A stretch of DNA of 64,000 nt, taken from positions 5,627-69,626 of the forward strand of contig JABHLG010000006.1 of the NCBI GenBank assembly GCA_018692915.1, read 5' to 3'. A program made the position numbers and the translations under genes. Positions within the stretch are counted from its first letter, which is position 1. Every line of letters begins with the position of its first letter. Shown here in pieces: positions 28,889 to 33,105 of the stretch. The stretch is from Candidatus Woesearchaeota archaeon. GTDB taxonomy: Archaea > Nanobdellota > Nanobdellia > UBA10117 > JABICX01. The notes below the pieces were generated by a model. That model was given only the letters and a program-made list of their open reading frames with translations, was not told the origin of the DNA and did not search any database.

Positions 28889-31618
28889 TTACTTCAAACT
28901 ATCCTCAACACTCTTTTTCTCAGCCTCAGTTAAGTCATAAAGCTTGTAAACTTTTTTGTTGATTTCCCGATTAGTTATATCAATTTCCTTCTCGATGAAA
29001 TCGCGTTCTTGTCCCGGAACATCTTTAAGTTTTTGAAGTTGTTTGTTTAAGTCAAGCATTTTATCTGCAAGTTTTATAAACATTCTCTGTTGATCTGATG
29101 AGCTTTTACGAATAGGTAACTGTTCTAAGAATGTTTTTGATATATTGACGGTCAGAGTAGATCGGTTAGTAAATTTATTTACATAATACCAGTTCAAAAG
29201 TTTGGAATTTAATAATGAAAGTATATATTTAATATTATATGATTTATCCTTTATCAACAACGTATTTGTTGAGTTGAATGTATAATATTTTTGATTATCA
29301 TAACTTACTACTACAACTCGATCTCCACCACCAATCCTTTGAGTTATTAGCTTCTCTGGGCTTAAGAATATTGACTCATCTCTGGCACGATATAGCAATT
29401 TTTTTTCATAACGTATCCATCTGTCAGCAAACACTGGATAAAATGGTTTAATATCCTTACCTTCCAACATTGGTTTATACGTATTATTTATTTTATAATC
29501 AGAAATCATTTTTTTCTTATTCGGACCTGTTGCAATACCTCCTGCGTGAATTATCATGACATCTCCTAAAACTTCTGAATCTTTTTCTACTTTATCAAAT
29601 AATTTTCGTCCACGCATGTCTAAGGTTATATTAAAAGCATAACTTGTATTCTTTAAAAACTCACTTTGCTGTATTTTCTTGGTTTTCCAATTAGTTCTTT
29701 CAAAATTTTCGATATCAGAAATTATTAAGGTTTTATTTGTATCTCTTTTCTTTTTATCACATTCTTTCTGCAGAAGTACGATTATTGTTGATGCTGTAAC
29801 GCCCTTAAACACTCCAGGACCCAAATCAATAATCTGCAAAATATTACAATTATCTAGAATGAATTTACGTACTATATCGTAAGTAGTAGTTCTAAGTAAA
29901 TTATTAGGTATTATAAAACCAAGAGTTCCACCTTCTTTAAGTAACGATACTGCTTTTATAATGAATAAAGAATATAAGTTTATTTTTCCAGATTGTCGTG
30001 CATGGCTCTTTGATGTAGATTCGGACGCGTTTAAGTAACTCTCCTGAATATATTTCTTGAATGAATCTGAAAATTCTACATCTCTCGTAAAAACGTAGGG
30101 CGGATTACCAATCACTATATCAAAACTCGTTTTCATTATAGTTGAGAAACGTTCCTCGAAGGATTTAGCTAATTGTATATTTCCATTGAGAATCTCTCTA
30201 TCATCAATTAAAGAATCACCCCATTGTATATTATCATTAATGTTTGGAAGTTTGGCTTTCTTTTCAGCAGCGCGCAATAATAAATTTAGTCTCGCAATAG
30301 AAACGGCCTTTGGATCCTTATCCATTCCATATATACTATTCTTCAAAAGACGTATATCTCGCTTAAATTGCTTGTCAGAAACCTCTGTGTATGCAGATAA
30401 ACTTTCTTGATAATGATCTTTACCATCATCATACTGCGCTTTTAATTTACTAAGCGCATTGATTAAGAACGAGCCAGAACCGCATGCGGGATCTAATATT
30501 TTAATCTCTTCAGGTCGCTTATGTTTTAATAATTCTCCTACAGTGTTATCAACAATATATTTAACAATATACGTAGGAGTATAATATATACCTTCTTCCT
30601 TCTTTTGTATCTGTTCAATATAATTTTCATACAGGTTTCCTAACACATCAGCATCTACTTGTGAGAAAATATATGGCAAACCATTCTTATTCTCATACAA
30701 TTGTCTTACGATTTCAAGTAAGATTTTGTTACTAATCTTTAAATTACGAGCCGTGATGAAATCACCGTGAAACAATTCACTGTTATACCATTCATCAAAC
30801 TGTTTGAATATTTTAGCAAGCATTTTGATAGCAGTAAATTCAATAGGATAATTTGCTCGTAGTAGTCTTTTTAGTTGAGGATCTACATGTTGTCTATCTT
30901 CAGTAAATCTAATAAATATCATTCTATCCAATATAGTTTGAACAAGTTCCTCATCGTATCCTTCAGGTAGAGTTGAAAAATCATTATTTTTTCGCAAATT
31001 TTTAATAAGTTTATCTCGCCAAGTTAGTAAGTCTTTAAGTAAAGCCGTATCAATTCTAATTCGTTTAGCTCTTTTGCCGGCTTTTTCTGCTTCTTTATTA
31101 AGCTCATCTCGTGGGAAAGCATAAAAAGAAAGTTTCCATAAATCTTCAAATCGCTCTAAGAATTCTGTATATTTAAACTTCCAGAATCGATTTTGTAATT
31201 CATCTTTAAAACCCCAATCAGCGTTGTATATAACTAATTCCTTAAAATTAGTTAGAACTACCCAACTTATGCCTGCGTTCCAACCATAACCAATTGCTTG
31301 TTTAACAAAATCCCTTTTGTAATGAAGACCATCAAATCCTAATGCTTTTGCTTCAATGAAGAATTGTGTTCTATCTCTAATTTTCACAGTAAAATCGGGG
31401 AATAATCTTTCATCTTGTTGTTTTTTACGTTGAGCAACAAAAGAACCTTTCAATTTCCCAGACATATTCCAACCAAGCGCTTCAAATAAAGGTGCTACTA
31501 ATTTTGTTTCAGCGTCGGTTTCAGTATAATCTTTCTCGTTTTTGATTGATTCATATAAATTAATAAGTCTAGCAATTTCTTTCTTTGCTCTTTGCTTTGC
31601 AGTTTCTTCATTTATCAT
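28889..31618 (-). CDS. Type IIG restriction-modification enzyme (PD-(D/E)xK nuclease + N6-adenine methyltransferase + target-recognition region in one polypeptide)
   Basis: N-terminal FPDFTV...FFIEAKALG (PD...ExK). Motif I is ILDPACGSGSFL and motif IV is VIGNPPYV (Eco57I/MmeI-like gamma-class). The ORF is open to 31753, but M46 (31618) avoids overlap with the upstream gene. Confidence 0.85.
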   Translation of the reverse strand: MINEETAKQRAKKEIARLINLYESIKNEKDYTETDAETKLVAPLFEALGWNMSGKLKGSFVAQRKKQQDERLFPDFTVKIRDRTQFFIEAKALGFDGLHYKRDFVKQAIGYGWNAGISWVVLTNFKELVIYNADWGFKDELQNRFWKFKYTEFLERFEDLWKLSFYAFPRDELNKEAEKAGKRAKRIRIDTALLKDLLTWRDKLIKNLRKNNDFSTLPEGYDEELVQTILDRMIFIRFTEDRQHVDPQLKRLLRANYPIEFTAIKMLAKIFKQFDEWYNSELFHGDFITARNLKISNKILLEIVRQLYENKNGLPYIFSQVDADVLGNLYENYIEQIQKKEEGIYYTPTYIVKYIVDNTVGELLKHKRPEEIKILDPACGSGSFLINALSKLKAQYDDGKDHYQESLSAYTEVSDKQFKRDIRLLKNSIYGMDKDPKAVSIARLNLLLRAAEKKAKLPNINDNIQWGDSLIDDREILNGNIQLAKSFEERFSTIMKTSFDIVIGNPPYVFTRDVEFSDSFKKYIQESYLNASESTSKSHARQSGKINLYSLFIIKAVSLLKEGGTLGFIIPNNLLRTTTYDIVRKFILDNCNILQIIDLGPGVFKGVTASTIIVLLQKECDKKKRDTNKTLIISDIENFERTNWKTKKIQQSEFLKNTSYAFNITLDMRGRKLFDKVEKDSEVLGDVMIIHAGGIATGPNKKKMISDYKINNTYKPMLEGKDIKPFYPVFADRWIRYEKKLLYRARDESIFLSPEKLITQRIGGGDRVVVVSYDNQKYYTFNSTNTLLIKDKSYNIKYILSLLNSKLLNWYYVNKFTNRSTLTVNISKTFLEQLPIRKSSSDQQRMFIKLADKMLDLNKQLQKLKDVPGQERDFIEKEIDITNREINKKVYKLYDLTEAEKKSVEDSLK

Positions 31619-31644
31619 TTGTGTATATATACTACAAACAACCC

Positions 31645-33105
31645 TTATAATTGTTTCTTCAGCTCGTCTATAATCCAAATCATACCTTCTGTATCTAATC
31701 CGCAGTACTTTTCTAATGAGTTTCGGATCTTCTTTCTTTTGGACTCTGAACAATCACCAAATTCAGATTCAATATAACGAATACTTGCAGTCATTCCATC
31801 TGCAATATACATTCCATCATAGCTTTTTCCAGTTACAGCAGGCAGAACTTTCTTGATAGACGCAGAACCTTTTTGTACTGGATTATAATAATGAAACTTC
31901 CTAAATGGAATAATTAAATCAACAAAACGAGGTGTTAGTGAGATAACCCACTCTAAATATTTTGGAAAAGTTTCTGCTAATTCTCGTAGAAGTCCTTGCT
32001 CAAATGATTGATTATATACAATGATACTTCCAGAGTTACCTAAAACGTTCTTCAATTCAGCCACAAATTTCTTACGAGGATCACTTTTACCTTCAGCTAA
32101 GAAAGAGAGATGTTCTGTTGAACCATCTTCCTGAACAATATGCAGAGAAAACTGAAATGGAATTCTTTGGTATGGTTTCATACCGTCAAATAATGGAATT
32201 ACAGGATTTATTGTTTCAAAGTCTAAGTAGTATAATGGATAGTTTAGTTTTCCAATAAATTTTTTGATCGAATCTTTACACATATGCGTCTTGCAATCTT
32301 TCTCGCACTTGTGCTGAATGCTCTGAATCGTACTGAGCTTGAAATCATCTGGAATCTCTTTAATCAAAACAACACCTTGTTCATATAGATCAAAGCTTTT
32401 CTTTCCACCACGAGAAAGTTCAAACACATTTCCATCGGGAAGGAAAGACCAACATTCATGTTTTAGTGGACAGTCATAAGGTGTTTTACAATCGTGACTA
32501 ATTGGAACCTTTGGTCGCGTTGTAGAATTTATAACTTTAAGTAAAACTTCGATTCGTTGAGTAAGACCTTTACCAATATCTGCAACATCATCAGTTATGT
32601 CTGTAAGCTTGAATATCTTTTTTACATCAATCTTACCGTTCTTTACATAAGTATTATCTATATTCATCAGGAAACATTTTCTAATTTTCAAACCTGATTG
32701 CTCATAGCAAAACTTCTGAAAGGAAACATCATGAAGATTAATCTCCTTAACTTTTGTTCCACTCTTGACTTCAATAATATCCCATTGGTCTTTTCCAACA
32801 GGCTTGAGAATATCTGCTCTTGAATACAATCCATTAACCATAAATCCTGCTTCAAAAAGAGGAACTCGTTTTGATAGGAGCGCCTTGCTCATTCGTATGC
32901 TTTCCATAAAATTTCCTTCAGGTATATAAATTCCATCTGTAAAGTATTTAGTTGCTAGCTGACCAACGATAGTACCTTGATCCATCTTATATTGAGCTGA
33001 TTTATCTGGTTGTGGTATTTTACTTTTATCATGTATGCTATCCCAAAGGTAACCACTACATTGGAGACCTACTAAGTATTTAGATTTTGTGAGTAGTTTA
33101 CTCAT
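31645..33105 (-). CDS. DUF2779-family protein (Cas4/RecB-like PD-(D/E)xK nuclease with Fe-S cysteines + C-terminal exonuclease-like domain)
   Basis: MSKLLTKSKYLVGLQCSGYLW, RADIL...DIIEVKSGTK (D...ExK), CKTPYDCPLKHEC cysteine cluster, and YYLDFETINPVIPLFDGMKPYQRIPFQFSLH. Confidence 0.75.
   Translation of the reverse strand: MSKLLTKSKYLVGLQCSGYLWDSIHDKSKIPQPDKSAQYKMDQGTIVGQLATKYFTDGIYIPEGNFMESIRMSKALLSKRVPLFEAGFMVNGLYSRADILKPVGKDQWDIIEVKSGTKVKEINLHDVSFQKFCYEQSGLKIRKCFLMNIDNTYVKNGKIDVKKIFKLTDITDDVADIGKGLTQRIEVLLKVINSTTRPKVPISHDCKTPYDCPLKHECWSFLPDGNVFELSRGGKKSFDLYEQGVVLIKEIPDDFKLSTIQSIQHKCEKDCKTHMCKDSIKKFIGKLNYPLYYLDFETINPVIPLFDGMKPYQRIPFQFSLHIVQEDGSTEHLSFLAEGKSDPRKKFVAELKNVLGNSGSIIVYNQSFEQGLLRELAETFPKYLEWVISLTPRFVDLIIPFRKFHYYNPVQKGSASIKKVLPAVTGKSYDGMYIADGMTASIRYIESEFGDCSESKRKKIRNSLEKYCGLDTEGMIWIIDELKKQL

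Follow-up and report, generated by a model that had tools for sequence, protein, structure and literature searches.

A nuclease gene of the DUF2779 family placed immediately upstream of a restriction-modification (R-M) gene raises the question of whether the two proteins act together and, if they do, whether the partnership is peculiar to one type of restriction enzyme. The case considered here comes from a 64,000-nucleotide stretch of DNA (the window; positions 5627-69626 of contig C10) from a Woesearchaeota member of the DPANN archaea, whose genome sequence of 608 kb is 77% complete. In the window an 8.6-kb accessory island, lying between asnS (25408-26694) and a gene for a DnaJ-domain protein (35413-36378), encodes both the DUF2779 protein and a Type IIG R-M enzyme, which a preliminary description had taken together as a two-gene defence module with a cooperative function. 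We find that DUF2779 in DPANN is strongly and recurrently associated with neighbouring R-M genes of all types and that the association is one with R-M in general; the Type IIG pairing taken by itself is ordinary.

Restriction-modification genes around DUF2779

The DUF2779 family (PF11074) was found in 107 of the 401 species-representative genomes of the phylum (27%), sometimes in two to four copies, and is in DPANN a patchy, horizontally moving accessory gene. Neighbourhoods of 20 kb were collected around 80 DUF2779 genes, open reading frames (ORFs) were called, the neighbours were clustered and cluster representatives were annotated with Pfam; counts were taken on 79 species-representative DPANN loci, with 40 loci at least 100 kb away in the same genomes serving as controls. 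A marker of a Type I, II, IIG, III or IV R-M system lies no more than three genes away in 29 of the 79 DUF2779 loci, a lower bound since the marker set excludes most stand-alone restriction endonucleases, and in none of the 40 controls (Fisher p 8.7e-7). Per gene, the frequency of such markers is 8.9% at positions ±1 to 4, 1.2% beyond ±6 and 0.12% (1/846 genes) in the controls. R-M genes are by far the commonest recurrent neighbours (HsdM, HsdR, HsdS, N6_N4 methylase, C5 methylase, Type III Res and GmrSD), their frequency peaks directly beside DUF2779, and the junctions measure 2-26 nt or overlap; where an R-M gene is directly adjacent it is co-directional with DUF2779 in 14 cases and opposite in four, with a median gap of 25 nt.

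The position of Type IIG enzymes within this pattern is a minor one. A large IIG gene lies within three genes of DUF2779 in three of the 79 DPANN loci and in none of 65 other loci; one of the three (L147, genome G148) has the layout of the window with a spacer of 25-26 nt, while the genes are divergent in L157 (G030) and convergent in L133 (G388). By counts made by hand from the listed matches, approximately 39 of the 401 genomes carry a large Eco57I-type ORF, and eight of these also carry DUF2779 (21%, against 27% overall), the two genes being adjacent in four. A Type IIG-specific module is ruled out by the 79 DPANN and 65 other loci and by this genome-level co-occurrence. What stands of the module suggested in the preliminary description is adjacency to R-M genes in general; because the partners of DUF2779 are of Type I, II, III, IV and IIG, with no conserved association with the last, and because the phyletic patterns of DUF2779 and Type IIG are independent rather than linked, the suggestion fails for Type IIG specifically. 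Nor do the window and L147 hold a recently co-transferred pair, since their DUF2779 proteins are 47% and their R-M proteins 35% identical, no closer than in unrelated lineages.

Two further gene groups came to light in these genomes. A co-directional trio of DUF2779, a MazG-like pyrophosphatase (~120 aa) and a Schlafen-group-3 helicase (~530-640 aa) recurs in L109, L115, L123 and L162, with a version without MazG in L156 and RadC often close by, and may be a distinct DUF2779-linked defence module. A separate family of ~460 aa, combining a RecB/Cas4-like nuclease, a helix-hairpin-helix motif and an RNase-H-like exonuclease and matching PF11074 weakly, is present in 14 genomes (L223-L236) and adjoins an R-M marker in one of the 14 loci, L223, where it lies behind a 964-aa IIG gene.

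Exchange of the restriction gene beside DUF2779

Among the closest relatives the restriction gene changes while its place is kept. In the clade of DUF2779 proteins at least 70% identical to that of the window, R-M genes lie within four genes downstream in all six informative contexts and are directly adjacent in five. The DUF2779 gene of P0004/L002 from another sample (97% identity) is followed after 2-3 nt by a different, MmeI-like IIG gene and then UvrD; that of P0005 (83%) by a convergent pair made up of an uncharacterised 342-aa protein and a C5 methylase; that of P0007 (72%), the sole non-adjacent case, by three small ORFs and a fourth IIG gene; that of P0008 (70%) after 22 nt by Type III Mod and Res; and that of P0009 (70%) by an overlapping GmrSD_N-HNH gene and a third IIG gene. 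Type IIG enzymes thus occur four times in this clade, with those copies that allowed a comparison only 27-31% identical to the window enzyme over the methyltransferase core.

The comparison with L002 locates the exchange precisely. By blastn the two sequences share 93.6% DNA identity from position 34438 of the window down to 31667, across the genes for a transposase, a small protein (the RHH-like gene of the table below) and DUF2779, and the homology ends (at 2889-2920 in L002) 22 nt before the DUF2779 stop codon, after which a different IIG gene follows. The last eight DUF2779 residues differ in the alignment (…IIDELKKQL in the window, …IIDKLKEFGGSK in L002), and the two R-M proteins are no more than 31% identical across the methyltransferase core. 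With homology lost 22 nt short of the stop codon, and with both the last eight residues and the R-M genes different, the exchange point is the 3′ end of DUF2779.

Adjacency to R-M, mapped on a DUF2779 tree of 107 leaves, must have changed state at least 24 times, 15 of these changes being forced by well-supported branches, and sister DUF2779 proteins are found beside unlike R-M types (IIG in one, Type I in the other; Type I in one, GmrSD and C5 in the other). Since the tree requires so many changes and the partners of sister proteins differ, the association with R-M is a general one that has often been gained, lost or re-targeted, and DUF2779 looks like the constant neighbour of a swappable ‘restriction slot’ between semi-constant flanks. 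The DUF2779 proteins of L036-L039, L043 and L049, from Chloroflexota, Scalindua and DPANN, are 47-55% identical and interleaved on the tree, a pattern that indicates inter-domain horizontal transfer.

The two proteins and the island that encodes them

The R-M protein is, as judged from its domains, an intact Type IIG enzyme comprising a PD…ExK endonuclease, a gamma-class N6-adenine methyltransferase (NPPY) and a TaqI_C-like specificity domain, and is predicted to be self-sufficient for recognition, methylation and cleavage. It matches the Pfam families N6_Mtase (6.3e-37), Eco57I (8.8e-34) and MmeI_Mtase (2.2e-10), and TaqI_C (3e-20) at residues 760-881, which form the C-terminal target-recognition domain. 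The PADLOC REase_MTase_IIG profile PDLC03604 (3.4e-101) covers residues 56-759 and thereby includes the N-terminal domain, where the Pfam HSDR_N match to the PD…ExK endonuclease region is weak (0.0097). GNPPYV and FPDF…FIEAK motifs are evident in the translation, and the relatives in the Protein Data Bank (PDB) are adenine methyltransferases and RM.BsaXI. Pfam, PADLOC and these motifs together bear out the domains that had been assigned to the protein beforehand. Membership of the methyltransferase in a BREX, DISARM or MADS system was considered and rejected: the matches to the PglX and mad2 profiles do not reach the NCBIfam cut-offs and are far weaker than the IIG match, PglZ, BrxC, DrmA/B/C and other mad genes are absent from the neighbourhood, and the genes around it encode PIN, winged helix-turn-helix (wHTH), staphylococcal nuclease (SNase)-like, DUF2779, ribbon-helix-helix (RHH) and transposase proteins.

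DUF2779 is modelled as a Cas4/EXO5-like iron-sulfur (Fe-S) PD-(D/E)xK nuclease fused to a DEDDy 3′-5′ exonuclease, with a predicted Fe-S cluster. The match to PF11074 is strong (5.6e-44; 149.9 bits against a cut-off of 23.3), whereas PADLOC, which holds no profile of its own for the family, returned one weak Cas4 match (1.2e-3). The protein contains the cysteine cluster HDCKTPYDCPLKHECW. In an alignment of 34 homologues of 28-97% identity (residues numbered as in the 494-aa ORF), C24, C214, C220 and C226 are invariant or nearly so; the N-terminal Cas4 catalytic residues D106, E120-x-K122 and Q138 (QxxxY) are invariant or at least 90% conserved, and the C-terminal DEDDy set D303, E305, N373/F376/E377, Y475 and D479 is conserved. 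Searching the PDB by sequence alone with the family profile yielded a single weak match, between the Exo II motif and a Pol I exonuclease, so that a fold search was needed. Foldseek, with an AlphaFold2 model of mean pLDDT (predicted local distance difference test) 93.3, matched the N-terminal half to Cas4 (8d3l_I, E 5e-5, probability 1.0; 4r5q; 4ic1), human EXO5 (7lw8) and the AdnAB nuclease, and the C-terminal half to the PolB exonuclease domain 5mdn and RNase T 3nh2. The Cas4-like nuclease with its cysteine cluster and the exonuclease-like C-terminus recognized earlier are therefore upheld by PF11074 and the alignment, and both proteins of the pair look catalytically intact from their sequences. 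DUF2779 has been described as a fusion of Cas4 and DEDD with predicted activity (PMC13621843) and has been placed in the 3′-5′ exonuclease clade F.17 of the RNase H-like families (PMC3985635); both descriptions are in silico, and according to them no member has been assayed. A role in CRISPR adaptation was rejected, there being no Cas1 match in the 77%-complete genome and no cas genes in the neighbourhood, as was a viral origin of DUF2779, for which no PHROG family matches were found.

The two genes are tightly linked on the minus strand, as had been proposed, and the coordinates, the 26-nt spacer and the 109-nt overlap given for them earlier all proved correct on checking ORFs and sequence. 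ORF calling followed a simple longest-ORF procedure, by which the R-M ORF extends over 28889..31753 (954 aa from a TTG) and that of DUF2779 over 31645..33129 (494 aa), the two sharing 109 nt. The R-M start is placed at the in-frame ATG 31618, the full-length L147 orthologue aligning from residue 46 of the long ORF, and the DUF2779 start at 33105, where its homologues open with MSKLL or MPKLL; the junction then runs from the DUF2779 stop codon TAA (31647-31645) to that ATG. A terminator scan found no terminator-like hairpin at the junction, and a sigma-70 promoter scan, with 25 sites against 25 expected in this AT-rich archaeon, was uninformative; from the spacing only, we infer that the two genes are co-transcribed.

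Table. Genes and sequence features of the accessory island (positions in the window; aa, amino acids)
Feature	Position	Strand	Evidence	Remark
wHTH-like orphan, 336 aa	27438..28448	+	clustering, genome search	partner of the PIN gene
PIN_3-domain (VapC-like) gene	28429..28848	-	Pfam PIN_3 1.5e-8	40 nt 3′ of the R-M stop codon
Type IIG R-M gene, 909 aa	28889..31618	-	Pfam, PADLOC	
Spacer, 26 nt	31619..31644	-	sequence GGGTTGTTTGTAGTATATATACACAA	DUF2779 stop to R-M start
Recombination breakpoint	31645..31667	-	blastn against L002	last 8 codons of DUF2779
DUF2779 gene, 486 aa	31645..33105	-	Pfam PF11074	from ATG 33105; longest ORF from 33129
RHH-like gene, 41 aa	33255..33380	-	by eye	149 nt upstream of DUF2779
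IS4/IS5-type DDE transposase	33487..34440	+	Pfam DDE_Tnp_1 6.8e-23	divergent from the RHH gene

The gene for the 41-aa protein, which has no Pfam match and owes its ribbon-helix-helix label to inspection by eye, also precedes the 97%-identical DUF2779 as a called gene, both in L002 and on a longer contig from JGI. The idea that it and the PIN gene are a toxin-antitoxin pair split by insertion was discarded: in L002 the RHH gene still accompanies the transposase and DUF2779, no PIN gene is called in the sequenced part downstream there, UvrD follows the R-M gene on the JGI contig, and the PIN gene travels with the wHTH gene, not with the RHH gene. The PIN and wHTH genes are convergent with overlapping 3′ ends, and this pair (27438-28869 in the window; 4618-6012 in L147) recurs beyond a variable neighbour of DUF2779 in L147, L156 and L137, that gene being IIG in L147, a Schlafen-type helicase in L156 and two uncharacterised genes in L137; relative to all three, the pair in the window is inverted. 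The wHTH family is present in 29 of the 401 genomes of the phylum.

Several smaller elements recur with the island. An SNase-like mini-protein of ~92 aa (27028-27306 in the window; 6183-6458 in L147; also L120) is found in three DUF2779 islands, and a ~95-aa orphan (cluster 243) in those of L147 and L156. A 23-nt inverted repeat (26823-26845 and 33166-33188; 91% complementary, none expected by chance) brackets the SNase-wHTH-PIN-RM-DUF2779 block as part of a 60-100-nt element (26773-26874 and ~33130-33190) that is also present at 1329-1390 in L002 and 1555-1670 in L003, and a GC-rich hairpin, gctacgctagcagcgtag, follows the copy at 26846-26866. Elsewhere in the genome a second R-M-like island (L237, contig G000:C7, 2284-11829) lies beside the genes for RNase H and ribosomal protein S7; it encodes a 1059-aa phospholipase D (PLD)-nuclease/SNF2 helicase, an Eco57I/MmeI-type methyltransferase of 1099 aa, a 111-aa ORF, a convergent PDDEXK_1/Cas4-like nuclease of 402 aa and a DDE transposase, and the 1059-aa PLD-SNF2 gene also flanks the DUF2779 island of the relative L003. 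A canonical solo-Cas4 of 257 aa (PF01930/PF12705; L238, G000:C8, 6693-7466) is encoded divergently from an M50 peptidase, and a Hef-like helicase-ERCC4 nuclease lies two genes off; this setting is of a repair type and differs from that of DUF2779.

Possible roles of DUF2779 and its place among known systems

We put at about even the chance that DUF2779 is an optional helper for R-M systems of any type, functionally tied to the adjacent restriction system. Its partners share no protein family and would have only one product in common, free double-strand DNA ends, from which DUF2779 would chew both strands, the Cas4-like half acting 5′-3′ and the DEDDy half 3′-5′. Cut invader DNA would then be beyond repair or recombination and be turned into nucleotides, while the restriction cargo would be exchanged by recombination right at the 3′ end of DUF2779. 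Because the R-M partners share only DNA ends and DUF2779 joins a 5′-3′ to a 3′-5′ nuclease, end degradation would be the most economical role. Cas4-family nucleases are 5′-3′ enzymes where they have been assayed, and in bacteria restricted DNA is degraded by RecBCD and AddAB, which to our knowledge archaea and ultra-small symbionts do not have. An extension of the helper reading by analogy, which we regard as rather unlikely, would make DUF2779 a portable, helicase-less stand-in for RecBCD/AddAB, a dual-polarity finisher for any R-M system in DPANN and the Candidate Phyla Radiation (CPR) that would be the fixed chassis beside the restriction slot and would salvage nucleotides from restricted foreign DNA in nucleotide-auxotrophic cells. 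The likeness is one of analogy only, in the attack on restriction-made ends, with AdnAB and AddB-type nuclease domains as fold relatives; DUF2779 differs from RecBCD and AddAB in being a single 55-kDa chain that lacks a helicase motor and Chi regulation.

The most serious competitor of the helper reading, somewhat unlikely in our judgement, is that the two genes are merely co-located, DUF2779 being a stand-alone nuclease (a defence effector or a repair enzyme) that accumulates in the same recombination hot spots as R-M genes. A number of observations weigh on this side. The islands are mixed, with insertion sequence (IS) transposase, integrase, PIN, nucleotidyltransferase (NTase), Fic, Bro-N and RadC genes and the MazG-like and Schlafen-type helicase pair recurring as rarer neighbours, which fits a generic defence or mobile island in which genes can lie together without cooperating. 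For approximately 60% of the DUF2779 genes in DPANN, no R-M marker was recognised up to three genes away, a figure that understates the association because orphan restriction endonucleases easily escape recognition, and the zero count in the controls comes from a marker set that was derived from DUF2779 neighbourhoods and could slightly under-detect R-M there. The same-strand bias of adjacent R-M genes (14:4) does not significantly exceed the bias seen among the remaining neighbours (82:57). In the phylum most Type IIG genes lack DUF2779 beside them, so that the Type IIG enzyme does not need DUF2779, and genomes with IIG are not enriched for it; the wHTH family, for its part, is found beside DUF2779 in just 5 of its 29 genomes, as loose co-residence predicts. 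Outside DPANN, an R-M marker was near only one of ~15 bacterial loci (Chloroflexota, Scalindua, Atribacterota and Alphaproteobacteria) and near none of the 35 loci of Acholeplasmataceae, where the housekeeping synteny is conserved. Co-location, however, does not readily account for the predominance of R-M among the recurrent neighbours and its peak at the directly adjacent position, nor for the retention of the junction to DUF2779 while the R-M cargo changes in the clade of the window, and the rarity of R-M beside the ~460-aa Cas4-like and RNase-H-like family weakly suggests that a nuclease architecture alone is not enough to bring about the juxtaposition.

The Acholeplasmataceae loci bear also on a second alternative, in which DUF2779 is a housekeeping repair or end-processing nuclease and restriction cassettes insert at its 3′ end because it serves as an anchor for homologous recombination. 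Their DUF2779 proteins (L066-L101) are ~610 aa long with a ~90-residue N-terminal insert and lie in a conserved nine-gene synteny without R-M, and in this family the role of DUF2779 looks like a housekeeping one. The gene is moreover quasi-essential in JCVI-syn3.0 (MMSYN1_0389; PMC13621843), and the breakpoint with L002 falls exactly at the DUF2779 3′ end. In DPANN, however, the gene occurs in little more than a quarter of the genomes, at times in multiple copies, and has no conserved housekeeping neighbours, the copy in the window sits inside an accessory island, and ~55% identity between Woesearchaeota and Chloroflexota proteins points to horizontal transfer rather than to a vertical core gene; we give the housekeeping explanation little probability. 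Among the loci compared, L056 bears the GTDB title ‘uncultured Methanosarcinales archaeon’, which conflicts with its grouping; its DUF2779 is identical to that of G321:C1 (L106), and the two are probably one record.

An equally improbable alternative, that the target of DUF2779 is not the invader and that it instead shields the host, by processing self-inflicted breaks on the arrival of an R-M system as restriction alleviation or repair, or benefits the island, by providing the exonuclease step for cassette exchange, can draw on the frequent cargo turnover and the breakpoints at the end of DUF2779, on the recombinogenic ends made by Cas4/RecB-family nucleases (PMC5704561) and on the UvrD helicase genes near two close relatives, but no recombinase or annealing protein accompanies DUF2779 consistently, and on present data the predictions of this alternative are the same as those of the helper-nuclease model.

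Whichever role applies, the locus is a well-documented new member of the known pattern of solo-Cas4 genes beside R-M, rather than a system of a new kind. DPANN and CPR are enriched for solo-Cas4, which moves between the two groups and adjoins R-M genes in several DPANN genomes, ‘implying uncharacterized defense pathways’ (Hudaiberdiev et al., 2017; PMC5704561). Like DUF2779 here, it is a Cas4-family nuclease outside CRISPR, in small CRISPR-less archaea, with R-M neighbours and signs of horizontal gene transfer involving Chloroflexi and CPR; that study, however, devotes one sentence to the R-M context, without statistics, and names neither DUF2779 nor the DEDD fusion nor Type IIG, and neither ‘DUF2779’ nor ‘Woesearchaeota’ is mentioned in its supplements. 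The same work reports fusions of UvrD with a Cas4-like domain (pfam12705) encoded with Type III Mod/Res or Dcm/Vsr genes, which resemble DUF2779 in being a RecB/Cas4-family nuclease supplied as an extra gene beside R-M but belong to a different family and are fused to a helicase, whereas DUF2779 has no helicase, is fused to a 3′-5′ exonuclease and has partners of all R-M types. MMSYN1_0389 of JCVI-syn3.0 (PMC13621843) and clade F.17 (PMC3985635) share with the archaeal protein the Cas4-like and DEDD architecture and the same catalytic residues; the Mollicutes form, however, with its insert and housekeeping synteny, has two of the four cysteines (PMC13621843), whereas archaeal DUF2779 has all four and sits in a mobile island beside R-M. 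A precedent for a Cas4-family accessory to another defence nuclease is the Argonaute-associated ACE1 (PDB 9iab/9iac), although its partner is a prokaryotic Argonaute and not an R-M enzyme, it has no DEDD domain and its fold match to DUF2779 is weak (E ~0.04, ranks 34-37).

To the known pattern the present analysis adds a quantified enrichment with a control, independence from R-M type and a breakpoint at the end of DUF2779. The locus illustrates the exchange of defence genes in DPANN, with a constant gene as recombination anchor and a variable restriction cassette beside it. Restriction enzymes only cut, and it is the fate of the fragments that decides whether an invader dies; given the difference in R-M frequency between its immediate neighbourhood and the controls, DUF2779 is a concrete candidate for the missing fragment-degradation step in archaea.

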